This document shows, piece by piece, positions 18,971-54,147 of a DNA stretch of 64,000 nucleotides. The DNA comes from a candidate division WS6 bacterium GW2011_GWF2_39_15 (lineage in GTDB: Bacteria > Patescibacteriota > Dojkabacteria > SC72), in the NCBI GenBank assembly GCA_000993565.1, contig LBWK01000001.1:428208-492207 (forward strand), read 5' to 3'. A model generated the notes under the pieces. It saw only the letters and a list, made by a program, of their open reading frames with translations. It was not told the origin of the DNA and made no database searches. Made by a program: the position numbers and the translations under genes. Numbering within the stretch: the first letter of the stretch is position 1; every line of letters starts with the position of its first letter.

Positions 18971-18993
18971 TGTTATACCTGTTTAATTAGATG

Positions 18994-19067
18994 CGCGCCC
19001 GGAAGGAGTCGAACCCACAACCCCTAGTTCCGAAGACTAGTGCTCTATCCAGTTGAGCTACGGGCGC
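18994..19067 (-). tRNA. tRNA-Arg (anticodon TCG)
   Basis: Acceptor GCGCCCG/CGGGCGC, anticodon stem CTAGT/ACTAG loop CTTCGGA; T-stem has one T-T mismatch. Confidence 0.7.
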
Positions 19068-19085
19068 ATCCCGCTACTTGTAGTT

Positions 19086-19162
19086 TGGCGTACCTGAACG
19101 GAATCGAACCGTTAACCTTTGGTTCCGCAAACCAATGCTCTATCCAATTGAGCTACAGGTAC
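19086..19162 (-). tRNA. tRNA-Arg (anticodon GCG), CCA encoded
   Basis: Acceptor GTACCTG/CAGGTAC, anticodon stem TTGGT/ACCAA loop TTGCGGA, T-arm AACGG-TTCGATT-CCGTT. Confidence 0.7.
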
Positions 19163-19225
19163 ATAATAGAGAAGAATGGGATATTTGTTAAATTGCACTG
19201 CCGCCTGCTATATGACAAAGCTAGA

Positions 19226-19301
19226 TGGCGTGCCCGGCCGGAGTCGAACCGACAACCTACTACTTAGAAGGCAGTTGCTCTTCCAGTTGAGCTACGGGCA
19301 C
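19226..19301 (-). tRNA. tRNA-Arg (anticodon TCT), CCA encoded
   Basis: Acceptor GTGCCCG/CGGGCAC, anticodon loop CTTCTAA, T-arm GTCGG-TTCGACT-CCGGC. Confidence 0.75.
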
Positions 19302-24903: not shown

Positions 24904-27900
24904 TTATCTTTCGATTGTCAGTTTCACATATATAGCCTGTCCAGTTTTATTATACACCTGGATCGAATTATTATCATAATACTCGTAGTAATACTCGCTT
25001 CCTAGTCCTTTAGAAGTAAAGCCGTAACCTTGTATATTATCCGACTTGATTATACTGATCTGCGAAGGGGTTGCATTGAAATTATGTGACACTTTTATAC
25101 TGTCATTAGGATTTATTTTTGTCCACTCTCCTCTGTATGTACCCTTTCCGCCGATCTGACCGGAAGGATTTACGCTGAAGAGAGTCTCACCTTTAGCATT
25201 CTTTATAACAAATAAGTCATTTTCACCATCTCCAATTTCAAGAACGATGCTTCCATTGTTAGACTTCAACCGACCATTAAGTGTCAAGTCACCGGCAACC
25301 CCAAGATTCCCTCCTGAATCTGCAGTCACAGATCCGTCACCAATATTCAAAAGGCCAGTATTTAAGATATTAAAGTCTCCTTTCGTTCCGGTAATACTTG
25401 CGACATTAACCTCTCGGCTTGTCGATATGCCGTTTTCCTCAATCTTCCATCCTCCTCCGCTTCCACCAAATGCCCCTGCGTTGTAATCACCAACCATCTT
25501 GGCAATATCATCACTAATCCACTGAGGCTGATACCATACAACATCAACAAAGGCCATTATTTTTCCGATATAAATACTATCTGAAGATGTTAAATTATAT
25601 TGTGCAAACAAAGATTCTCTGACACTCTTATCAAATGAATCAACCGGTACTACAAAACATGGCTTAAGTTCATTCTTTCCATTATCCTTGGGCCACTTTA
25701 TATCCTCAATGCCGCTTACAGACTGGCAGACACTATCAGCCCAATCCAAGGTATCTTCCAAAGCCTTTGCAACGACCATTCCTGGGTCTTTTCGCACAGC
25801 CCCTATTCCTGGAAGTACAGAAGCAGTGATTACATCTCCCTTGGCTACACTTCTACCGGTAGTCATAACCTTCATAGGAAGACGCCCAATAAGACCTACA
25901 GGTCTAGCATTATCGCTTCTTTCATCATTCATAAGAAGGCCTGGTGCCGTAGATACTACCCCCATAAGGTTGGAAATATTATCAAGGTCGGATTTTTGAA
26001 CTTCCCCTACAGTATTTGGATCCAAACTTACAAGATCGCCTGGTTCAATTGTAAGATCGCTTACCTTATACATTTCAGCAAGGTCAGCACTTTGTACACT
26101 TGTATTATTGGCATAGATAGTACCGGCTGTTGCCCCCGCACAGTCATCAGCATTGGATTTAACACACAGTGCTCCTACAACCTTTAATTCAACGTCAGGC
26201 GTACTATCACCTATTCCTACTTTCCCGGTAGCCCTATATATGTTAGCGCCAACTGTAGCCCAATCAGAATCCCCACCGCTTGAACCCCCTGCTCCGGTAA
26301 CACTTAATCTAAGTTCCTGAGATTCCCCTGAGTAGTTATAAATACGTGCTGTGTTCGCATCGGTCATTTCTACCTTATATCCATTACTCCATGATAGCTT
26401 CACATTATATAGGGTTGGCTTATATCCTACCTCAGAGGTACTAAATATGATTCTATACTGCATGTAATCACTTGCTGTGGAAGTAACAGTTGATCCGCCT
26501 TCACTCCTCATATACCTGCCTCCTACCATATTATCTATATAAAAAATATTGGAAGAGGAAGTCAGATTAGTTATCCGAAGCTTAGTGATAGCATTTCTTT
26601 GATACGAAGGGACATCTGATATATCCCAATATACTTTCTGCCATGTATCAACCGTATCCATTCCAACCGTCATCTCATTTTCCGTAGAAGTACTTTCACC
26701 AAAACCTAATTTGATGGTACCCCCTGTTTGAGATGCTCTGACCCAAATACTAATGTAATCAAAATCGGCAAGGCTTAAACTCGAAATAGTAGCTTCTGAG
26801 TACCCACCGTTAGTTGATGAGACCATCTTTGTTATATCTGCAACAGTTGTCTCATCTTCGTCTTCGTAGTAATCGACGTTCCTAGTCACATCGCCTTCCG
26901 ACACGGTTACATTAGTACCGCTCCAGTTTGTGTGGGTGTCTGCAGTCTCAATAGACTTTTCATTAGTATCTACAACCACAGGCTTCCACCCTTCCCAGGT
27001 ACCATCTGTAGAGTTATTTGAGGCTCCGCTTCGTGTTTGAATCTCTATTAGTCCATACTTATTTAAATCACTGTGCCATCTAATCTGCCCAAAGCCTGAA
27101 GCTTTTGGTGTATTAATTTCATCCGAAATATAAACTCCGTAAGTATTAGACGGCTGAGAAGCAACCTCTGCTCCAGGTGTGACACCGGAACCGGAATATG
27201 AGTTCAGGTAGAAGACCGCTATTCTACCATCCCCACCGGCACCACCATTATACGAGTCATTTGTTGCTCCGGAGTTATACCCAATTCCTCTGATTCCTCC
27301 TGTTGCACTGGTCTTACTTGCACCAAGATTTGCAGTATTACTGACTATCTTGATTGATCCACCCGCACCACCACCACCTCCTCCTCCATAAAGGCTTGCA
27401 CCATTAACCCCATTACCACCATTTTCACCATTAACCTGAAGATTTCCTGAAACAGTAACGCTATTTGCAGCAATTGATACTATTCCACCCCCGTCCCCAC
27501 CTTTTCCAGGGAAGTGATCAGAAGCATTATGCGTGTATTCTCCACCTTCGCCTCCGGCGGATCCAAAGAACATCTTACTTAAATCGGCAGTCCCGTAGCT
27601 TCCACCACCTCCTCCTCCACCTATTCCCGCACCTCCATACCCACCGTTACCTGAAGTATTGATTCCACCATCTACACCTCTTTGTGTACTTGTAAGGGAA
27701 TAACTTCCCGCGATACCGTAACCTCCATAACCACCACCACCACCACCGCCATCATAACCTGACCCACCACCTCCAGCACCACCTGAAGAGGAAGAACCTA
27801 CTCCCCCGCTAACTGAATTAGTAGATCCACCACCTCCACCGCAATATCCATTTCCACCCTGATAAAGGGTTGTATTATAGTACCCTGCACCACCACCGGC

Positions 27901-28251
27901 TGCACCGTTACTACCGTAAGCAATACTACCCGCAGCAATATATCCCCCGGCTCCACCAACTCCACAAAGACTTTCTCCTCCGTTACCTCCTGCTGCGCTC
28001 CCGTTCGTATCATATCCAGCGTCGTTATCATAGAATCCTATATATCCTTTAGCATTTGCATGGATTGTTCCATTAATAGAAACTGATCCAGTTGCTCGGA
28101 AGAAGATAACCCCTCCTTCTCCCTTACCATTGTTAATAGTACCATCCGGTTGGATCCAGTCATCTGGATACCAGTTGATACTTGAATTCACTGTTACATC
28201 TGTATAGTTAGGGACTCGCTGCAGCATCAAGTCCAATATTCGTATCGTCAC
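24904..28251 (-). CDS. giant glycine-rich repeat surface protein, C-terminal ORF (fragment 3 of 3)
   Basis: 1115 aa; GGxGG-rich tracts, repeated module shared with 28208..30712; starts inside conserved module (MLQRVPNYTDVTVNSSINWYPDDW). Confidence 0.6.
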   Translation of the reverse strand: MTIRILDLMLQRVPNYTDVTVNSSINWYPDDWIQPDGTINNGKGEGGVIFFRATGSVSINGTIHANAKGYIGFYDNDAGYDTNGSAAGGNGGESLCGVGGAGGYIAAGSIAYGSNGAAGGGAGYYNTTLYQGGNGYCGGGGGSTNSVSGGVGSSSSGGAGGGGSGYDGGGGGGGYGGYGIAGSYSLTSTQRGVDGGINTSGNGGYGGAGIGGGGGGGSYGTADLSKMFFGSAGGEGGEYTHNASDHFPGKGGDGGGIVSIAANSVTVSGNLQVNGENGGNGVNGASLYGGGGGGGAGGSIKIVSNTANLGASKTSATGGIRGIGYNSGATNDSYNGGAGGDGRIAVFYLNSYSGSGVTPGAEVASQPSNTYGVYISDEINTPKASGFGQIRWHSDLNKYGLIEIQTRSGASNNSTDGTWEGWKPVVVDTNEKSIETADTHTNWSGTNVTVSEGDVTRNVDYYEDEDETTVADITKMVSSTNGGYSEATISSLSLADFDYISIWVRASQTGGTIKLGFGESTSTENEMTVGMDTVDTWQKVYWDISDVPSYQRNAITKLRITNLTSSSNIFYIDNMVGGRYMRSEGGSTVTSTASDYMQYRIIFSTSEVGYKPTLYNVKLSWSNGYKVEMTDANTARIYNYSGESQELRLSVTGAGGSSGGDSDWATVGANIYRATGKVGIGDSTPDVELKVVGALCVKSNADDCAGATAGTIYANNTSVQSADLAEMYKVSDLTIEPGDLVSLDPNTVGEVQKSDLDNISNLMGVVSTAPGLLMNDERSDNARPVGLIGRLPMKVMTTGRSVAKGDVITASVLPGIGAVRKDPGMVVAKALEDTLDWADSVCQSVSGIEDIKWPKDNGKNELKPCFVVPVDSFDKSVRESLFAQYNLTSSDSIYIGKIMAFVDVVWYQPQWISDDIAKMVGDYNAGAFGGSGGGWKIEENGISTSREVNVASITGTKGDFNILNTGLLNIGDGSVTADSGGNLGVAGDLTLNGRLKSNNGSIVLEIGDGENDLFVIKNAKGETLFSVNPSGQIGGKGTYRGEWTKINPNDSIKVSHNFNATPSQISIIKSDNIQGYGFTSKGLGSEYYYEYYDNNSIQVYNKTGQAIYVKLTIER

Positions 28252-30790
28252 TCAGTCCGTCTCCATAGTACTTTGTTTTGGATGTTGTAAATGTAATTGT
28301 CTGCCCTACGCTGGATATTCTTAACGTTTCGTAGTTACCTACATTTCCAAAAGCTGTGTTAGTCCCACGAAGATTTATCAACAATACCTCATCACCCACC
28401 GCCAGACAACCTGTCGAAGGCGATGATTCCAGTGTTACATTATAGTTAACAGCATCTCCACCATCACCACACGAACGTCCAGTAATTATGTTCGATACAT
28501 TAATACTCCCATCTGATGTTACTGTAATACTCCCATCATTACCTGTTCCTAAATCTACAGAAGAATTAAGAGTTACACTATTATCCGAAGAACTTACGTG
28601 GACTCTCCTATCAGAATCCAGGTTCTTCTCAACTACGGTTAATCTGGATACCGATGGGTAGTCCTCACTATTAATTTCTCTTATTCTGTCAGCATCTACT
28701 GTGTAAGTACCTGATAGATTGGTAAGATTGATCCGAACAGCGGATAGCGTTGGGGTTGAAGCTGTATCTGTAGTGGAAAGGATAAACCGGTACTGCATAT
28801 ACTCATCTGCTGTTGAAGATATCGTTGAACCAGCAGCATTACTCAAGTAGTTTTCACCTTTGATATTGTCTATGTAAACAACTGCACTATTAGGAACAGA
28901 TGTCACCCGTAGCTTTGTAATTGCATCACGTGCTGTCGAAGAGATTGCTGAGATATCCCAATAGACTTTTTGCCACGTATTTACCCCGTCAATATAGACA
29001 GTAATTTCGTTCTCAGTGGCTGCAGCCTCGCCTATTCCTAACTTTACTGACCCGCTAGTAGATGACGACCTTATCCATGCAGTCAAGTATTGATATGTTG
29101 AGATGTCCGATGCAGAAATGGTCGCTTCCGCGTAACCGTTAGAGGCCGTAGCAGTTAACTTAGTAAGATTCCCGACAGTGCTCTCATCCTCATCTTCATA
29201 ATAGTCAATGTTTCGAATAATATCTCCCTCAGCTACTGTCATGTTGCTTCCAGTCCAGTTAGTATGCGTATCTGCTGTTTCCAATACTTTATAGTTAGTT
29301 GTTAACGTGGCCGGTTTCCAGGCTTCCCATGTGCCATCAGTAGAGTCCGGTGTTGAACCGCTTCTCGTTTGAACTTGTATCTCTGTATTGGTAGGGAGGT
29401 TTTCTGTCCAGGAAATGTTATTTAGTGCTGTTGAACTTGGAGTGTGAATCTCGTCACTTACGTAAGCGGCATATGTGTTATAGGATAGGCTATATGATAC
29501 AGCCTCAGCCGGAGATCCTACTAATGACGTACCGTAAAATGCTGCAATTCTACCATTACCTGCTGTTCCTCCTGCTGCTGCTGCATAAGGGGTTGTAGAA
29601 GCCGCATATCCGTTACCGCCAGTTCCTCCCGTTACAGTGGTCTTTGTAGTACCCAAATTCAAACTGTCTCCTGCTACCCTGATTGACCCACCCGCACCAC
29701 CTCCACCGCCAGCATCAACGTATGCTGCCCCAGCACCTCCATTACCGCCATTTTCACCATTAACCTGAAGATTTCCTAAAACAGTAACGCTATTTGCAAC
29801 GATTGATACTATTCCTCCACCATCTCCGCCTTTACCTGAAATTGAAGATGTATACGATACAGTATTAGTATATTCTCCCCCTTCACCTCCGGCGGATCCA
29901 AAGAACATCTTACTTAAATCGGCAGTCCCGTAGCTACCACCACCTCCTCCTCCTGCATATGAGCTGTTTACACCATTATATCCACCGTTACCAGAAGTAT
30001 TTGTTCCTCCATTAATTCCACTATATGGCAAACCACCAGTGGGGCTTCCTCCAATACCGTAAATTCCATACCCACCACCACCTCCTCCTCCATAGTGGTT
30101 CGCACCACCACCACCAGCTCCACCAGATGTCGTGGAACCCACTCCGCCCGATGTATTCAAAGATGTTCCACCACCTCCACCACAATATCCATTACCGCCT
30201 AAATAGCTGGTTGTTGTATTCTGACCAGAACCACCACCAGCTGCTCCGTTAGCTCCTGCAGCAATATATCCTCCTGCTCCACCAATACCACAAAGACTTT
30301 CTCCTCCGTTACCTCCTGCTGAATAGTTACCTGACCCATAGTTAGGGTCGTCATCCTGAAATCCTATGTATCCTTTAGCATTTGCATGGATTGTTCCATT
30401 AATAGAAACTGATCCAGTTGCTCGGAAGAAGATAACCCCTCCTTCTCCCTTACCGTTGTTAATAGTACCATCCGGTTGGATCCAGTCATCTGGATACCAG
30501 TTGATACTTGAATTCACTGTTACATCTGTATAGTTAGGGACTCGCTGCAGCATCTCGTCACTCAGTCCGTCTCCATAGTACCTTGATTTAGCAGAAGTGA
30601 AGGTAACCGTTTGGGAGGTAACATTCGAGACCCTCATGGTCTCGTAATTACCTACATTTCCAAAAGCTGTGTTAGTCCCACGAAGATTTATCAACAATAC
30701 CTCATCACCCACCGCCAGACAACCTGTCGAAGGCGATGATTCCAGTACGTTACATTATAGTTAACAGCATCTCCACCATCTATACATGAA
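27420..30790. repeat. tandem ~2.3-kb direct repeat inside the giant gene
   Basis: Near-identical blocks, e.g. 28044-28228 = 30371-30555, 28321-28470 ~ 30651-30790, 27465-27640 ~ 29770-29950. Confidence 0.7.
28208..30712 (-). CDS. giant glycine-rich repeat surface protein, middle ORF (fragment 2 of 3)
   Basis: 834 aa; begins and ends with the same GDEVLLINLRGTNTAFGNVGNYET module; Gly-rich core. Confidence 0.6.
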   Translation of the reverse strand: MGDEVLLINLRGTNTAFGNVGNYETMRVSNVTSQTVTFTSAKSRYYGDGLSDEMLQRVPNYTDVTVNSSINWYPDDWIQPDGTINNGKGEGGVIFFRATGSVSINGTIHANAKGYIGFQDDDPNYGSGNYSAGGNGGESLCGIGGAGGYIAAGANGAAGGGSGQNTTTSYLGGNGYCGGGGGTSLNTSGGVGSTTSGGAGGGGANHYGGGGGGGYGIYGIGGSPTGGLPYSGINGGTNTSGNGGYNGVNSSYAGGGGGGSYGTADLSKMFFGSAGGEGGEYTNTVSYTSSISGKGGDGGGIVSIVANSVTVLGNLQVNGENGGNGGAGAAYVDAGGGGGAGGSIRVAGDSLNLGTTKTTVTGGTGGNGYAASTTPYAAAAGGTAGNGRIAAFYGTSLVGSPAEAVSYSLSYNTYAAYVSDEIHTPSSTALNNISWTENLPTNTEIQVQTRSGSTPDSTDGTWEAWKPATLTTNYKVLETADTHTNWTGSNMTVAEGDIIRNIDYYEDEDESTVGNLTKLTATASNGYAEATISASDISTYQYLTAWIRSSSTSGSVKLGIGEAAATENEITVYIDGVNTWQKVYWDISAISSTARDAITKLRVTSVPNSAVVYIDNIKGENYLSNAAGSTISSTADEYMQYRFILSTTDTASTPTLSAVRINLTNLSGTYTVDADRIREINSEDYPSVSRLTVVEKNLDSDRRVHVSSSDNSVTLNSSVDLGTGNDGSITVTSDGSINVSNIITGRSCGDGGDAVNYNVTLESSPSTGCLAVGDEVLLINLRGTNTAFGNVGNYETLRISSVGQTITFTTSKTKYYGDGLSDDTNIGLDAAASP

Positions 30791-33357
30791 CGTCCCGCAA
30801 TTATACTTGTTGTATTAATACTACTATTCGCAGAAACGGTAACTGCTCCATCTGCTCCATTACCCAAATCGTTCTGTCCAAGACCCAATTTAGCACTTTG
30901 AGCCTTCCGTTTTGATGCAAATGAGGTATCAAACTGATTTCCGAGGTTATGAGTAATATCATTCCATATATCGGTAGCCTGTTTCCACTGACTTCCAACT
31001 TTAACCCATGCAGTTGATATCAAGTCAAAGGAATTCTCGTTATGTACAAGTTCAAGATATGAACCGTTGGGAACAACACCTGTAGTAGAATGCAGCTGAC
31101 TTGTAGACAAGGCTTTCCACTCAGAGCCATCATATACAAAAAGACTCCCAAGAGTCGTGTCATAAACCAACGACCCGCTTCCTACCCCAGTAGGTTTGGA
31201 TGAATAATTTCCAACCTGTAGTTGTCCAGTGACGGCTAAATTAGTCCCGTCATTTGTCAGTACACTACTCGCTTCCCAATCAGTACCATTATGTCTTAAA
31301 GTTTGTCCTGAGGTACCTGCATAGATATTACCAAGCTCTTTCCACTGAGTCTCGTCGTAATAATAAATACTTTTTGAAGCAGAATTGTATACTAATGACC
31401 CACCTCCCAAAGCCGTTGGATTTGATCCATAGCTTGCCAACTGGAGCTGTCCACCGTTTAACACTACATCACCTGAGAAAGTTCCATCTACAACATTGGT
31501 AATACTATCCCCTGCAAAAGATATATTGCCTGAGGCAGAATCAAAAGTTATATCACCCGAGGTATTAGATATTATTGACGATCCGCCTGCAATATCTAAC
31601 TTTCCTCCCGGAGTACTTGTTCCGATGCCCACATTTCCGTCTGCGTCAATGACAAACGGGGTTGTATCTCCCGCTTCATCATTTACCCGAAAACTAAGAC
31701 CCAGAGTGCTATTAGTTAGAGTTAATAGTTCATTACCCTCATCAAAAAAGAGAGGAGCACTTGAATCCATACCACCCAAGGCAAAATCATCCACAAGAGA
31801 AGTCAAATATGTAACATCACCGCCATCAGTGAATAGACTGCCTCCCGTACCGCTTCCCACTAAAAGATCAACAGAGCTTGATCCATCAAAAAAGTAAAGA
31901 TTTGTACCGTTCCACCATAAATCCCCGGAATTAGGTGTAGCAGGATTAATACCAGCAGAAGTCACAAAGTTGATCTGAGCAGAAGAGGTTGTTGCAGCTT
32001 TTATTCCAAGAAAGGCTGCAGGTGAAGCAGCCCCAATTCCAACACGTCCGGTACTGAAGTCAGTAACCTGATTATCCCAATCAAAAGACATAAACGTATA
32101 CGTATTAGTCCCGTTATACCCTGATACAGTCATATCTTTATTGTTTGAGACATGCGTGAAAGCCCATTGAATATGGGTAGAATCAATAACTCCCTTTCTC
32201 ATATTGATAGAGGTATTTCCGTTACTCACCCCGGTTTGGGTAAGGTTCCCCGTATCTGAAAGGGAAAAGCGGACTACACCCGAATTATTTACAAAATTCA
32301 ACGATGGAGAAGCAGATGCTGTAATGCCTAGCCAATATCTACCTGTAGCATCAGATCTGCCAATACCAAGGGTTTGAGCATCAGCAAGTGACTCGAGAAC
32401 AGTTCTCCCTCCCTTTACCTCCAACTTTGCCCCGGGAGCGTCTGTTCCGATACCTACATTGCCATCTGCATCTATAGCAAACGGAGTCGTATCGCCTGCT
32501 TCATCATTTACCCTGAAGCTTAAACCTGCCGTTGTATTACTAAGTGTTAACAATTGGCCGCTGACATCATAAAAAAACGGAGATGAAGAGTCCGAACCTC
32601 CAAAAGCAACATCTAAACCTGTATAGCTATATATAATATCCGGATCAGTTGCCTCATTAAGAAGCCAGTATGATGGCAGATTACCAATCGCCGCTTGAAC
32701 TGCCAGCCAGTTCGTACCATCATAGACTCTTAATACATTATCATTACCATCATAAAAGACCTGGCCGGCGGCAATATCAGAGTATCCTGTAGCATCATTA
32801 GCTGAATCGAATTGAAACTGCTTACTCGCACCCTGAGCACTTATAGCAAATGCCGTTCCACGCACGGCCATCCTCTTACTATTAGCATCAAGAAATGTCT
32901 CTGTGTAAGTACTTCCGTCAGGAGCAAAGTCAACCTCAACATATACCGAAGGATTATTCAAAAAGATGTTTCTAAAAGATGTTTCACTACCACCAGTGAA
33001 GGTTCCCGTACCTAATGCAAGGTTGAATATACCGTTGTATTCACCAATCTCTATATTACTAAAAACCTCCGTAGCCAAAACGGTACCCAAAGTATCAACG
33101 CTGTAGTACTTAACTCTGAAATCACAAGTATCATTGCTCGCACCAAGAAATACACAGGCCGGTGACCCTGCACTCACATTTAGTCCTTCATTCCCACTAT
33201 CATTCCTTACAATTTTTCCCTGAAAATTGATCGTTTCAGAAGTGGCAAACACTGGAGACGAAAAATACACCGCCAAAGCGATTCCGACTAGAGGCAAGAA
33301 AAGAAGTAGTAGAGGGATTTTATTAAGTTTTAGGCAGTAATCGGCAGTGCTTCTCAT
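30691..33357 (-). CDS. giant repeat surface protein, N-terminal ORF with signal peptide (fragment 1 of 3)
   Basis: 888 aa; N-terminal signal/TM MRSTADYCLKLNKIPLLLLFLPLVGIALAVYF; duplicated GLSFRVNDEAGDTTPF[AV]IDADGNVGIGT fibre-like repeats; xYxYDGxxW repeats. Confidence 0.6.
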   Translation of the reverse strand: MRSTADYCLKLNKIPLLLLFLPLVGIALAVYFSSPVFATSETINFQGKIVRNDSGNEGLNVSAGSPACVFLGASNDTCDFRVKYYSVDTLGTVLATEVFSNIEIGEYNGIFNLALGTGTFTGGSETSFRNIFLNNPSVYVEVDFAPDGSTYTETFLDANSKRMAVRGTAFAISAQGASKQFQFDSANDATGYSDIAAGQVFYDGNDNVLRVYDGTNWLAVQAAIGNLPSYWLLNEATDPDIIYSYTGLDVAFGGSDSSSPFFYDVSGQLLTLSNTTAGLSFRVNDEAGDTTPFAIDADGNVGIGTDAPGAKLEVKGGRTVLESLADAQTLGIGRSDATGRYWLGITASASPSLNFVNNSGVVRFSLSDTGNLTQTGVSNGNTSINMRKGVIDSTHIQWAFTHVSNNKDMTVSGYNGTNTYTFMSFDWDNQVTDFSTGRVGIGAASPAAFLGIKAATTSSAQINFVTSAGINPATPNSGDLWWNGTNLYFFDGSSSVDLLVGSGTGGSLFTDGGDVTYLTSLVDDFALGGMDSSAPLFFDEGNELLTLTNSTLGLSFRVNDEAGDTTPFVIDADGNVGIGTSTPGGKLDIAGGSSIISNTSGDITFDSASGNISFAGDSITNVVDGTFSGDVVLNGGQLQLASYGSNPTALGGGSLVYNSASKSIYYYDETQWKELGNIYAGTSGQTLRHNGTDWEASSVLTNDGTNLAVTGQLQVGNYSSKPTGVGSGSLVYDTTLGSLFVYDGSEWKALSTSQLHSTTGVVPNGSYLELVHNENSFDLISTAWVKVGSQWKQATDIWNDITHNLGNQFDTSFASKRKAQSAKLGLGQNDLGNGADGAVTVSANSSINTTSIIAGRSCIDGGDAVNYNVTYWNHRLRQVVWRWVMRYC

Positions 33358-35911: not shown

Positions 35912-36225
35912 ATGTGTGAAAAAATATTAATTTAAGGTATTAGTCAGTTTTAGGAAAAAATATACTCCCCTAAGGGAGGAGATTAAGAAGAGTATTTACT
36001 TGTATAACCTTAAATCTATACATAGTGAGTATTATATAGAGAATGTAGGGAAAAGAAAATGCCTGGAGGAATCATAGTCCCGGGAAGCGTCTTAGCATAC
36101 ATAGCTCCAGCCCGCTAATCCCCATTTTTTATTCGTTTACACTATACGTATTTCAAGAGTCAATCTCTCAGCTATCGGCTGATCCGATTCTTTGGGTTTA
36201 CAACCTTGGAGTAGAAGTATGATTG

Positions 36226-36300
36226 TGGACCTGATGGGACTTGAACCCATGACCCCTTCTATGCCATAGAAGTGCTCTAGCCAAACTGAGCTACAGGCCC
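36226..36300 (-). tRNA. tRNA-Ala (anticodon GGC)
   Basis: Acceptor GGGCCTG with G3:U70 wobble (Ala identity), anticodon loop ATGGCAT, T-loop TTCAAGT. Confidence 0.7.
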
Positions 36301-36337
36301 GTAATTACCTCCGTTAAGTATAAGTTAGCGGGATAAA

Positions 36338-36410
36338 TGGACTCAGCCGGAGTCGAACCGGCGATCTTCGCAATGCGAATGCGACGTTCTACCAGCTGAA
36401 CTATGAGCCC
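36338..36410 (-). tRNA. tRNA-Ala (anticodon CGC)
   Basis: Acceptor GGGCTCA with G3:U70, anticodon stem TCGCA/TGCGA loop TTCGCAT. Confidence 0.7.
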
Positions 36411-36454
36411 AATACTTGTGATTATACTATATCTTTGAGAAATATAGAAAAGAT

Positions 36455-47849: not shown

Positions 47850-48359
47850 GCATAAGCAATCAGATTCTCTAATTACTCATGCCTGACAACCTCTATTACT
47901 AGAGATATCAGGACTTTAAATTCATAAAGAGCTATTAAGAGTGTTTACACACTCAAAACTGAATAGAAATTTGAAGCATTTCAAAAAGTTTTTTGATCTA
48001 TTAGTACACCTTGGCTCAATACATTGCTGTACTTACACCTAGTGCCTATCAACGTAGTAGTCTACTACGGATCTTCCGTTGCGCGAACGCAACAAGCAAA
48101 TCTAATCTTGGGACAGGCTTCGCACTTATATGCTTTCAGTGCTTATCCCTAAATAACATAGCTACCCAGCAATGCTCTTGGTAGAACAGCTGGTACACCA
48201 GAGGTTTACCTCGCCCCGATCCTTTCGTACTAGGGGCCACTTCCCTCAAATTTGCTGCGCCCATACCGGATAGAGACCGACCTGGCTCACGACGGTCTGA
48301 ACCCAGCTCACGTGCCACTTTAATGGACGAACAGTCCAACCCTTGGGAGCTTATCCACT

Positions 48360-48395
<36 letters not shown>

Positions 48396-48803
48396 GGTGC
48401 CGTCAATATGAACTATCGGGCACCACCAGCCTGTTATCCCCGGGGTAACTTATATCCGTTAAACAATGGCGATTCCACATTCTGCCAAAGGGTCACTTAA
48501 ACCTGCTTTCGCAACTGCTCGGGATGTCTCCCTCACAGTAAAGCCACCTTATGCTTATGTACTCTTCATCCGATTTCCATCCGGATTGAGGTGACCTTTG
48601 TACGCTTGCGTTACTCTTTTGCAAGCAACCGCCCCAGTCAAACTGCCCGCCGTGCACTGTTTCCTTGCCGGGTAACGGCAAAGGTGAGAAATTAAACGCC
48701 AATAGGGTGGTATTACACTGGTGACTCCCCAAATCCTGACGAATCTGGTTCAAAGTCTCCCACCTATGCTCTACAACTAGAGCCTAATTTCAATGCAAAG
48801 CTG

Positions 48804-48834
<31 letters not shown>

Positions 48835-48960
48835 GTACGGGTAGGCCGCATCTTCACAGCCATTTCAATTTCGCCGAGCACGCTGTCGAGACAGTGAGAG
48901 AGTCGTTACGCCTTTCATGCAAGCCACTAATTAAGTGGCGAGGTATTACGCTACCTTAGG

Positions 48961-49745
48961 CATTCCTGTTACTTAGATCTAAGTATCTATTTACTTAGAT
49001 GACCTAATTTCTTAGGCGGATATACTTTTGTATATCTCTCTACATTACTGTAGAGGTCGGACTATATCTTCTTCCACATATTTTTGTAAATGGAAGTCTA
49101 ACGTTTAGCCTCTGAGGATTCTTGCAACTAATTCTTTCTTTTCCCACTTTTTACCTTTTCCCATCTGATTCATCTCATATGAATAATCTAACAACTTCAG
49201 CATTCCTTTCGGACTAAGATGTTGCTTATTCTTCATCATCACTATTGCATCTCTAAAAATAGAGAATGCTTTTAGTTTTGTTTTCAACGGATATGTTTCG
49301 AAGAATGGGATAACTCTTTCATAACACGGATTAATTCCGGATATTTGGTATGTATAAACACTATATGGGGAAGTTTTTCGATGTATACTTCCGCAACCAA
49401 ATACTTTCATAATCTCTTCTAGAAACCATTTATTCTTTTCATGTTGATAAACATAAAAAGCTGGTTCTATTCTAAAACCGTATTTAACATTAATACGATT
49501 TTTAATATTAAGACAGAAACTCCCTTCTCCATCTACAAATCCTGAGATAAACCATTTAGAACTTTCGGTATTAGGGATATTAGTTACAAATCTTTCCTGC
49601 TGATTGTCCAAAAACATGAAGTTTTTACTTAATAAATTAAGTATCCATGCCGTTTAGGATGTCCCAGCATACAGTTAGATTTTACAACGGCCCGATATCT
49701 GGTAGCAAAACCAAGTAATAATTATCATTACTACTTAGTAGATAT
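48961..49745 (-). mobile_element. group I intron in 23S rRNA (domain IV, helix 69 3' side)
   Basis: Exon junction reconstructed by alignment to E. coli: ...ACTATAACGGT | intron | CCTAAGGTAGCG...; upstream exon ends in U, intron ends in G (plus c48961); AT-rich insert containing HE ORF. Confidence 0.6.
49105..49617 (-). CDS. LAGLIDADG homing endonuclease (single-motif, intron-encoded)
   Basis: 170 aa; ISGFVDGEGSF LAGLIDADG motif; lies entirely within 23S intron. Confidence 0.8.
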   Translation of the reverse strand: MFLDNQQERFVTNIPNTESSKWFISGFVDGEGSFCLNIKNRINVKYGFRIEPAFYVYQHEKNKWFLEEIMKVFGCGSIHRKTSPYSVYTYQISGINPCYERVIPFFETYPLKTKLKAFSIFRDAIVMMKNKQHLSPKGMLKLLDYSYEMNQMGKGKKWEKKELVARILRG

Positions 49746-51115
49746 TTATCTACCACCGTTATAGTTACAGCCGCCATTGACCAGGGCTTCAGTCATCCGC
49801 TTTTCAACAATTGACACACCGAAGTGTGGCAAGAGTCGATGACAAACTTCCTTAACCTTCTGGCATTGGGCAGGCGTCAGCACTTATACATCTTCTTACG
49901 AATTTGCAAGCGCCTGTAGTTTTGGTAACTAGTCGCTCTCTCCTATTCTGTGCCACTGTAATCACTGCCTGAAAAAATCTGACAGTGTACAGTCCCCCTT
50001 CTCGCTAACTTACGGGGTGAATTTGCCGAATTCCTTAACAACGCATCACTCGTACGTCTTAGTGCATTTACACCAATCTACCGGTGTCGGTTTGCGGTAC
50101 GATTACCATAAATATTGCTCAAGACCGAAGTCTTAAGCGCTAGAAGCTTTTCCTGGAAGATTAATCTGACAGATCGGATTCCTTGCGGTCACCTTTCCAT
50201 AACAGTTCGTGTTCATCCCGCAAGCGGGAAACGTTTTCGTGGATTTACCTGCGAAAACTAACTTGCTGTTTAGACCCCAATCCTTAAGGGGCCTGCCTTT
50301 TCAATCCTCTCACTCCATTGCTAAATATAGTAGTACAGGAATATTAACCTGTTGTCCGTCACCTACGCCTTTCGGCCTCGGCTTAGGATCGACTTACCCA
50401 TGGGCGACTGACGTAGCCATGGAAACCTTAGATATTCGACGAGCAGGGTTTTCACCTGCTTTGCGCTACTCATCCATGCATTCTCACTTCCATACGCTCC
50501 AGCAACTCCTTACGGGCTGCCTTCACTGCTTTTTTTAGCCTGCTAAGGCCAACATGTATGGAACGCTCCTCTACCAAATGTATTAACCGAAGTTAATACA
50601 CATTCGCAGCTTCGGAATTTACCTTTAGCCCCGTTATATCTTAAGCGCAGAATCTCTAGACTAGTAAGCTTTTACGCACTTTTTAAAGGATGGCTGCCTC
50701 TGAGCCAACCTCCTAGCTGTCTGAGAAACTCCACTTCCTTTGCCACTGAGGTAAATTTAGGGTCCTTATCTGACGATCTGGGCTGTTGCCCTTTCGAACG
50801 TATTAGCTTAGCCCAATAGTTCTAACTGCCACAATGTACATTCCGGTATTCGGAGTTTTACAGAACATGGTACTCTTTCGAGCCCAAGATTCTATAAGTG
50901 CTCTACCCCCAGAATTTAAATTGCAACGCTAGCCCAAAAGCTATTTCGAGGAGAACCAGCTATTACCAGGTTCGTTTGGCATATTACCGCTAACCACGTG
51001 TCATCACATAATTTTGTAACATTAAAGTGTTCGAGCCTCCATCCCACTTTCGTGGGACTTCACTCTGCACGAGGTTAGATCACCTGGATTCGGGTCCAGT
51101 GCATACGACTGAATT

Positions 51116-51146
<31 letters not shown>

Positions 51147-51264
51147 CCACCGTTTCCGGTTTAACCTTGCCGTACACAACTGACTCGCATGGTCATTCTT
51201 CAATAGGCACGCCATTATCCTAGCAAGCTAGGACTCTGACTGTTTGTAAGCATATGGTTTCAGT

Positions 51265-51308
<44 letters not shown>

Positions 51309-51991
51309 TCGGAACTTGTTCACTATCGGTCGCAAAAAAGTATTTAGTCTTACCAAGTGGTTTTGGCAGATTCCCACAGATTTTCACTTATTCCGTGGTA
51401 CTTAAGAATACTAAAAGAAAGACACATACCTTTAATGTACACAGCTTTCATGTTCTATGGCCGACCTTTCCAGATCTATTCCATTAGATATGTATTTTGT
51501 AACTTTCCGACCAAATTGCTGTTTGATCTATTAGTATCTTACAACTCCAATATTGCACGAACAGCAACCTACGAGTTTGTCTTTCCAATCGTCGCAACGC
51601 GACTCATGAATTAACGCCCTCTTACACAATATTGGTTTAGACTCTTCCCGTTTCGCTCGCCACTACTAAGGGAATAAACTTATGTTCTTTTTTCCTGTTG
51701 GTACTGAGAGGTTTCACTTCCCAACGTTCTCTCCTCTACAGATATGTATTCTCTGTAGGGTAACTGGGTATGACCCCAGCTGGATTACTCCATTCGGAAA
51801 TCTCCGGGTTATAACGATTGTTTGACATCTCCCCGAAGCATATCGCAGTCTACTACGTCCTTCATCGACTTTTTGCGCCAAGGCATCCACCATATGCCCG
51901 TAGCTTTACTTTTTGAAATGGTTCATTTCTATTCAGTTTTTAAAGTGCAAACACTATATTTTCGTAATCTATTTCTAGACTACATATCTTG

Positions 51992-52280: not shown

Positions 52281-53822
<1,542 letters not shown>

Positions 53823-54147
53823 GAAAAATTGCTTACAAATGACATTTGCATGCCATTTGACTATCGTCGCAAATTGATAGATTTATGAATTGTTGGACTA
53901 TTGCACTTTGCAAAAAAATTGCACTCAACAAGAAGTCCAAGATATTTATTACTTGACTTCCTGCCACTCTTCAATTTTCAACGAGCAAAATACATCGCTG
54001 TTATACCACTCGTTAATCATCATGTCAAAATCTTTTTTTAGGAATTCGTTAGAGTATATTTTCTAAGAGGAATCCTGCTCCCACAGCTTCCCGAACTTGT
54101 GTGAAAGGATTATATCAGAGCCATATAGGATATGCAAGAGAATTTCT

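Follow-up and report, generated by a model that had tools for sequence, protein, structure and literature searches.

We find strong support for the view that three consecutive open reading frames (ORFs) in a 64-kb stretch of DNA from candidate division WS6 bacterium GW2011_GWF2_39_15 (Dojkabacteria; contig LBWK01000001.1, assembly GCA_000993565.1), here called the window, are fragments of one ancestral gene for a cell-surface fibre of ~2,800 residues. All three lie on the minus strand. Piece 1 (30691..33357) encodes 888 amino acids (aa) that comprise a leader, an N-terminal domain resembling the MAT_N domain and a fibre region with NVGIGT motifs. Piece 2 (28208..30712; 834 aa from an internal GTG) covers a first large module, A, and extends ~100 aa into a second, B, while piece 3 (24904..28251; 1115 aa, also from an internal GTG) holds the remainder of module B and the C-terminal 453 aa. 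Successive pieces are in different frames and share an overlap of a few codons, and piece 1 runs 20 codons past the first of two frameshift sites. Removing 2 nt (30746-30747) and 16 nt (28229-28244) in silico yields one ORF of 8,436 nt, encoding 2,811 aa and containing no other stop. The initial annotation had described the three ORFs with their shared motifs, the leader and NVGIGT motifs of the first ORF and the two indels at the ORF boundaries; all of this was confirmed, the leader from its hydrophobicity as judged by eye. As assembled, the export signal belongs to piece 1 alone, the 888-aa N-terminal one; pieces 2 and 3 carry no leader peptide of their own.

Orthologues and conserved neighbourhood

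Searching with the repaired protein returned proteins from Candidatus Dojkabacteria that share its build and are each single and intact, ranging from 2,040 to 3,278 aa. P0003 (2,802 aa), P0001 (2,821 aa) and P0006 (2,824 aa) are close in length to the repaired protein, P0002 (3,047 aa) and P0004 (3,278 aa) are longer and versions with one module span 2,040-2,463 aa. The positional orthologue is P0001 (PLV59_01010, a hypothetical protein of Candidatus Dojkabacteria, GCA_035437765.1), which occurs with identical sequence in at least three independent assemblies. Its locus and the window share the gene order Rho, LysM/M23 peptidase, LeuRS, fibre gene, cyclophilin (peptidyl-prolyl isomerase), ComEA, ComEC, metallo-beta-lactamase-fold protein (MBL) and DegT, and the sizes of the flanking ORFs at four further loci (L004, L005, L006 and L008) agree with this neighbourhood. 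Since the flanking genes have the same or nearly the same lengths as at the P0001 locus, only the fibre gene is affected. A scan of GTDB species representatives recovered eight loci, the best at 70% identity and none from this species.

The repaired protein is collinear with P0001, with 63% identity over 2,751 aligned codons, and the two modules start at aa 832 and 1603 in the window protein compared with aa 833 and 1609 in P0001. Constraint relative to P0001 is strong and alike in all three pieces, with nonsynonymous differences (pN) of 0.17-0.30 and synonymous differences (pS) of ~0.75, the latter saturated. P0001-P0010 share with the window the neighbourhood, the leader, whose start is conserved as well, and the N-terminal domain; P0001 also has two modules at the same positions and a C-terminal region of 445 aa. 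Unlike the window, the orthologues have an uninterrupted ORF. The gene in the window thus lies with the leuS-adjacent giant fibre genes by synteny and collinearity, and it differs from them in the single uninterrupted frame, which it does not have as assembled. In none of at least nine relatives do the pieces stand as genes of their own, an arrangement that the initial annotation had named as refuting its reading, and the proposal of the initial annotation that the locus is one adhesin or fibre gene of ~2,800 aa stands on this count as well as on the syntenic orthologues, which are single intact ORFs of the same architecture. For annotation, the three ORFs are better merged into one interrupted gene, flagged as such, than listed as three hypothetical proteins.

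One other orthologue is split. At L004 (JACPFP010000002.1, 3082-11359), from a groundwater Dojkabacteria metagenome-assembled genome, the gene is divided into 1,170 and 1,622 aa. An out-of-frame deletion of 80 nt, with (GGT)n runs on either side, has cut it within the Gly-rich part of module A, and the modules are not homogenised. Because this independent orthologue is split as well, disruptions of the fibre gene in assemblies are not rare, whatever their cause.

Upstream, a gap of 106 nt between the leuS stop and the start of the fibre gene contains a promoter-like TTGACA-17-TACTAT sequence (33443-33415, minus strand). Its presence and 10 of 12 consensus matches bear out the initial annotation; this is a consensus match only, and across the region such sites are no commoner than in shuffled sequence (18 observed, 21.3 expected).

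Modules, homogenised tracts and frameshift sites

Module A (28550..30864, minus strand; ~771 aa) consists of a beta-sandwich, a Gly-rich helix-like region and a jelly roll similar to carbohydrate-binding modules (CBMs; approximately 28721-29281). Module B (26305..28549, minus strand; ~743 aa) has the same three subdomains, with the CBM-like part at approximately 26374-26949. Of the 2.3-kb tandem repeat recognised initially, the period is real and the near-identity of the copies is confined to two tracts; elsewhere the modules are mostly 50-70% identical in DNA. Tract 1 (minus strand; 30648-30780 in A, 133 nt, and 28335-28465 in B) is identical between the modules but for a 2-nt indel, and tract 2 (minus strand; 30369-30581 in A, 213 nt, and 28043-28271 in B) but for a 16-nt indel and a single C/T substitution at 30455. 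After repair, the exact runs shared between modules measure 131, 126 and 86 nt, and the two tracts are the only long direct repeats in the window. In the orthologues the two modules are 60-80% identical in DNA, without homogenised tracts: the corresponding tracts of P0001 are 65-80% identical with a longest exact run of 28 nt, and the longest run at L004 is 32 nt. Judged from these alignments, the two-module architecture is old, and the near-identity of the two tracts is recent and specific to this genome, a lineage-specific event that is most simply explained by intragenic gene conversion. The tract similarity is probably present in the real DNA, because modules that had diverged as in P0001 would give an assembler nothing to confuse; the conversion itself is therefore probably real. 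A repeat pair of a diversity-generating retroelement, which would differ at adenine positions, was ruled out, as the tracts differ only by the two indels and the single C/T change; no search aimed at a reverse transcriptase was made in the window.

Module number varies among orthologues, which were compared in P0001-P0010 and at the loci L005 and L008: a single module is present in P0005, P0007 and P0010, whereas P0001-P0004, P0006 and the window protein have two. An additional inserted domain occurs in P0002 and P0005; P0002 has a precomputed Pfam match of the Laminin_G_3 type (PF13385). By these comparisons, the fibre gene evolves as modules are gained, lost and inserted into. The split in the window illustrates what recombination of internal repeats can bring about in such a gene: changes in module number, conversion tracts and deletions.

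Each frameshift site lies ~30 nt inside the 5' edge of one homogenised tract. Site 1 (30746..30747, minus strand) is an extra GT in copy A relative to copy B: copy A reads AATGTAAC-GT-ACTGG and copy B reads AATGTAACACTGG. Site 2 (28229..28244, minus strand) comprises the 16 nt TACGAATATTGGACTT, present in copy B and missing from copy A. Alignment with the orthologues places the indels in a different light. In relatives, NYSVT and LESxPS are separated at site 1 by an 8-residue segment of the ALTSTTAT type, and YYGDGxS and MLQRVPNY at site 2 by DDTNIGLxxxxQxV. Both segments are kept in every module copy examined (more than 13 copies from more than nine relatives), while the window lacks both, in both modules. 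Relative to the orthologues, copy A is 22 nt short at site 1, which is out of frame, and copy B is 24 nt short at 28433/28434, which is in frame; at site 2, copy B is 20 nt short and out of frame, and copy A is 36 nt short and in frame. These four gaps are the sole window-specific gaps relative to P0001 outside low-complexity Gly runs. At each site the right-hand deletion boundary is common to both copies and the left-hand boundary differs.

What the out-of-frame copies retain is recognisable. At site 1, copy A keeps "G T", which is compatible with ancestral ACG TCN, and at site 2, copy B keeps T ACG AAT ATT GGA CTT, which corresponds to ancestral DTNIGL. On this alignment the indels are deletions of different sizes from the ancestral sequence, and the 16 nt are an ancestral remnant. 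They had initially been described as an insertion, which they are not, because DTNIGL is present in every relative. Re-insertion of the 16 nt by conversion from within the 64 kb was ruled out, as there is no third template copy in the window, and the two indels cannot cancel in one copy (+18 nt) since the intervening alternative frame contains a TGA. In a model of an orthologue module made with AlphaFold2, the site-1 segment forms a beta-hairpin and the site-2 segment a loop with the first residues of a strand. Both sit in the N-terminal beta-sandwich subdomain of the module, where the predicted local distance difference test (pLDDT) scores are 67-90.

Neither site shows signals for a programmed change of frame. 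The last 150 nt of piece 1 contain no X XXY YYZ heptamer, Tandem Repeats Finder finds nothing at 30747 or 28229-28244, and no homopolymer of four or more bases occurs within 30 nt of either site. These sequences lend no support to programmed frameshifting or slipped-strand phase variation, because heptamer, homopolymer and tandem repeat are all missing, the two sites would need opposite shifts and the relatives are unshifted. The phase-variable gene considered in the initial annotation accordingly finds no simple repeat, homopolymer or slippery sequence at either site to work with.

Domain architecture and other features of the window

The leader (aa 1-38, ...SSPVFA followed by TSE) has a basic and then a hydrophobic stretch and by eye resembles a Sec signal. 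It precedes a conserved domain of ~130 aa (aa ~30-165; 32863-33270, minus strand) with the motif TINFQGKIVRNDTGxEGLNV...NDTCDFRVKYYS. This N-terminal domain is common to dozens of Patescibacteria proteins of 1.5-4.7 thousand aa (P0001-P0030 among them), whose downstream domains differ widely and include LamG, GH130-like, S74 and beta-propeller domains. The fibre gene belongs to this large uncharacterised set of giant Patescibacteria surface proteins that share one N-terminal domain. NCBIfam NF053851 (Bdello_MAT_N) is the sole family matched by the domain, in 13 of 19 Patescibacteria relatives, with a best E value of 2.8e-7. The window protein scores 22.7-27 bits (E 7e-5 to 3e-6) against a curated cut-off of 60 bits, below which all members fall. 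Because Bdello_MAT_N is the only family matched, in 13 of the 19 and at scores below the cut-off, we read this as a remote sequence similarity and not as family membership. In the mosaic adhesive trimer (MAT) proteins of Bdellovibrio, which form chimeric fibres that bind prey, the N-terminal domain does not vary and is presumably the end nearest the cell surface (Caulton et al. 2024, PMC10769870).

Five giant homologues (P0014, P0023, P0033, P0068 and P0079) are annotated as site-specific integrases. P0014 and P0023 start with a phage-integrase SAM-like N-terminal domain instead of a leader (P0014 aa 13-103, PF02899, E 5e-6), which could be a fusion, a gene-calling artefact or real domain recruitment.

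AlphaFold2 models were made of module A of the P0001 orthologue (mean pLDDT 63) and of the C-terminal 453 aa, in both cases as monomers. The beta-sandwich at the module start, weakly related by NCBIfam to the N-terminus of the gliding-motility protein AgmC (weak AgmC_N-type match at aa 18-120 of piece 2), also occurs in small stand-alone proteins of 230-342 aa encoded on long contigs (P0083, P0089, P0090 and P0092), one stand-alone protein being from a Sandaracinaceae (Myxococcota) bacterium. In a Foldseek-type fold search, the Gly-rich part of the module gave weak matches to tailspike beta-helices, and the jelly roll at the module end matched many CBM structures (probability 1.0, TMt 0.5-0.63) where the model has a pLDDT of ~60-75. 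The jelly roll probably has a CBM4/11/16/30-type fold, and glycan binding is predicted on this basis.

The C-terminal region contains a domain with the autochaperone fold of phi29 gp12 (25516..26088, minus strand; pLDDT 70-94), followed by a further beta-sandwich that extends down to 24907. The top match of the C-terminal model in the Protein Data Bank (PDB) is 3suc, pre-mature phi29 gp12 (E 4.5e-3, probability 1.0, 248 columns), and among the BFVD matches are a 'Preneck appendage protein', with E 6e-8 and TMt 0.62, and phage proteins that are 26-32% identical. Pfam shows no Peptidase_S74 (PF13884) or Peptidase_G2 match in the window protein at E <= 0.1; a Peptidase_S74 match is found in more distant homologues such as P0036. 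Sequence searches of the PDB with C- and N-terminal profiles gave nothing useful, the C-terminal one yielding no more than a weak lectin match (E 0.23), and Pfam, PHROGs and NCBIfam gave nothing above curated cut-offs on the three pieces. A CHU_C match (E 0.018) was dismissed as chance. The structure prediction called for initially in view of beta-helix or fibre folds thus yielded a phi29 gp12-like C-terminus and CBM-like jelly rolls, while the beta-helix matches were weak.

Taken as modelled, the protein would be a secreted, phage-tailspike-like, glycan-binding surface fibre that plausibly serves attachment to a host cell. The intact protein would be exported via its Sec-type leader and held at the cell surface by the remotely MAT-like N-terminal domain. 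Its long fibre, with two modules of ~770 aa, would probably bind glycans on a host or partner cell, and the C-terminal phi29-gp12-like autochaperone probably aids fibre assembly. Epibiotic growth of cultivated Patescibacteria depends on several adhesins and glycan-binding proteins (Wang et al. 2023, PMC10633639), and because of this need for adhesins the giant Patescibacteria fibres are candidates for host recognition. Our literature search found no paper describing this fibre family.

Elsewhere in the window, nearly all genes lie on the minus strand and the GC skew is uniformly negative. The 23S rRNA gene (47980-51915, minus strand) measures 3,936 nt compared with a model of 2,925 nt and encloses an ORF (49105-49617, minus strand) for a 170-aa LAGLIDADG_1 homing endonuclease (E 3e-20). 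Its extra length is an intron-type insertion, of a sort common in 23S genes of candidate phyla radiation bacteria; no insertion interrupts the 16S gene (52281-53825). Three tRNA-Arg genes (tcg, gcg and tct) are clustered at 18993-19301 (minus strand), and a pair of tRNA-Ala genes (ggc and cgc) lies at 36225-36411 (minus strand).

Origin of the breaks and related systems

Our preferred explanation, which we hold about evenly balanced against all others together, is that the breaks are real and very recent, and that at least part of the population carries them as an unprogrammed null allele, that is, a young pseudogene. Intragenic gene conversion would have homogenised two stretches close to the start of each module between the modules. 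Small deletions inside these stretches would have removed the hairpin at site 1 and the loop with the strand start at site 2, leaving one module per site out of frame, by -22 nt at site 1 and by -20 nt at site 2. Because all three pieces are equally constrained relative to P0001, the breaks must be recent or not real. The out-of-frame alleles are hard to obtain by base-calling error because plausible ancestral bases are retained in them, and since k-mer (de Bruijn) assembly needs the junction k-mers in the reads, the junctions would be present in at least some molecules.

Several observations weigh against a null allele. The window has no long near-identical repeats other than those that hold the two indels, and such repeats are just where strain alleles can be mis-threaded as differences between copies or a long-read consensus can fail. 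The gene shows two frameshifts with no other lesion and a single substitution in the converted tracts, so that several events would be required in a very short time, and for neutral decay it is odd that each site is in frame in one module and out of frame in the other. No second assembly of this species was found. An exact look-up of piece 1 in a public gene index showed it not to be on record, an exact DNA pattern over site 2 with a gap of 0-30 nt had no match in JGI metagenome contigs, and a protein search with the 221-aa junction region for fragments from the same species returned nothing above 55% identity. As for the fibre function, the AlphaFold2 confidence is moderate (mean pLDDT 63-65), the MAT_N and AgmC_N matches lie below curated cut-offs and the signal peptide was judged by eye.

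Many of the same observations lead to an artefact of assembly or consensus, which ranks a close second and which we consider a serious possibility, if a less probable one. The gene would then be intact in the cell, with strain alleles placed in the wrong repeat copy or reads from the two modules mixed in polishing. The exact runs of 131, 126 and 86 nt around the indels would provide the occasion, and the remainder of the 8.4-kb gene, all neighbouring genes and the orthologues are intact. The in-frame and out-of-frame states at each site could be the product of mis-threaded alleles or of a mixed-copy consensus, and metagenome-assembled L004 has lost the frame through a deletion as well, in a (GGT)n-rich stretch of the kind in which assemblies typically run into trouble. 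However, a simple sequencing error is excluded, as the 16 nt that were kept make sense as ancestral sequence and neither site is a homopolymer. The junction k-mers of a de Bruijn assembly must be in the reads, which would put out-of-frame junctions into some molecules, and alleles swapped between the copies would still give two frameshifts.

A functional switch, in which recombination between modules toggles the frame or the ribosome shifts, so that an 888-aa stub alternates with the full fibre, is improbable. In-frame and out-of-frame states of each site do coexist in one gene, and both sites lie ~30 nt within the 5' edge of a converted tract. Surface fibres for host attachment are a type of gene that is often phase-variable, and by reading of the sequence a +1 shift at CTT-G-ATG would yield exactly DDTNIGL-MLQRVPNY. 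Yet simple repeats, homopolymers and slippery heptamers are missing, and opposite shifts (-1 and +1) would be required at the two sites. No relative is shifted at either site, and none even carries the deletions; there is no recombinase nearby and the homogenised tracts are missing from the orthologues. In a specific form, which we rate marginally lower still, the sites would be recurrent recombination hot spots at which short conversions between modules toggle the frame of a host-attachment fibre with no need for a simple-sequence repeat. If this were so, an episymbiotic candidate phyla radiation bacterium could switch between a truncated stub and a full glycan-binding fibre.

Fission into three functional genes, with the downstream two translated by coupling or re-initiation, is very improbable. 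In its favour, a possible start of the following piece lies before each ORF end, with overlaps of 22 and ~17-44 nt, and the sequence reads GGAG 9 nt upstream of the GTG at 28251. Against it, the GGAG-containing sequence recurs in copy A within the coding sequence, pieces 2 and 3 lack export signals though they are built of extracellular-type domains, and the pieces are apart in no relative, the one other split orthologue, L004, being cut elsewhere.

Whether recent null allele or artefact, the split is an ordinary event and represents no new mechanism or new kind of system. It resembles frameshifted or phase-variable giant adhesin genes in that a long repetitive surface-protein gene is cut by small indels in internal repeats. 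Phase variation of the classical kind depends on homopolymers or on short tandem repeats, whereas the sites in the fibre gene have neither. Among the closest relatives, P0001-P0010, the difference lies in the sites themselves, as the orthologues retain the site-1 hairpin and the site-2 DDTNIGLxxxxQxV.

The protein is comparable to the phi29 pre-neck appendage gp12 (3suc) in its C-terminal fold and, through the weak tailspike beta-helix matches, in the Gly-rich part of its modules. Unlike gp12, it is encoded by the cell in a conserved housekeeping neighbourhood and not in a prophage, it has no Pfam Peptidase_G2 or S74 match and its autochaperone role is predicted from the fold. With the MAT fibres of Bdellovibrio bacteriovorus it shares the build of a secreted, chimeric protein similar to phage tail fibres, in which variable binding domains come after an invariant N-terminal domain, and a C-terminal chaperone is likewise present in many MAT members. 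In contrast to these, the Dojkabacteria fibre protein is ~3 times longer and has Gly-rich and CBM-like modules not described for MAT proteins, its C-terminal domain resembles phi29 gp12 and not Peptidase_S74, and it was modelled only as a monomer whereas MAT fibres are trimeric. Bdellovibrio and the Dojkabacteria bacterium carrying the fibre gene are alike in living attached to other bacteria.

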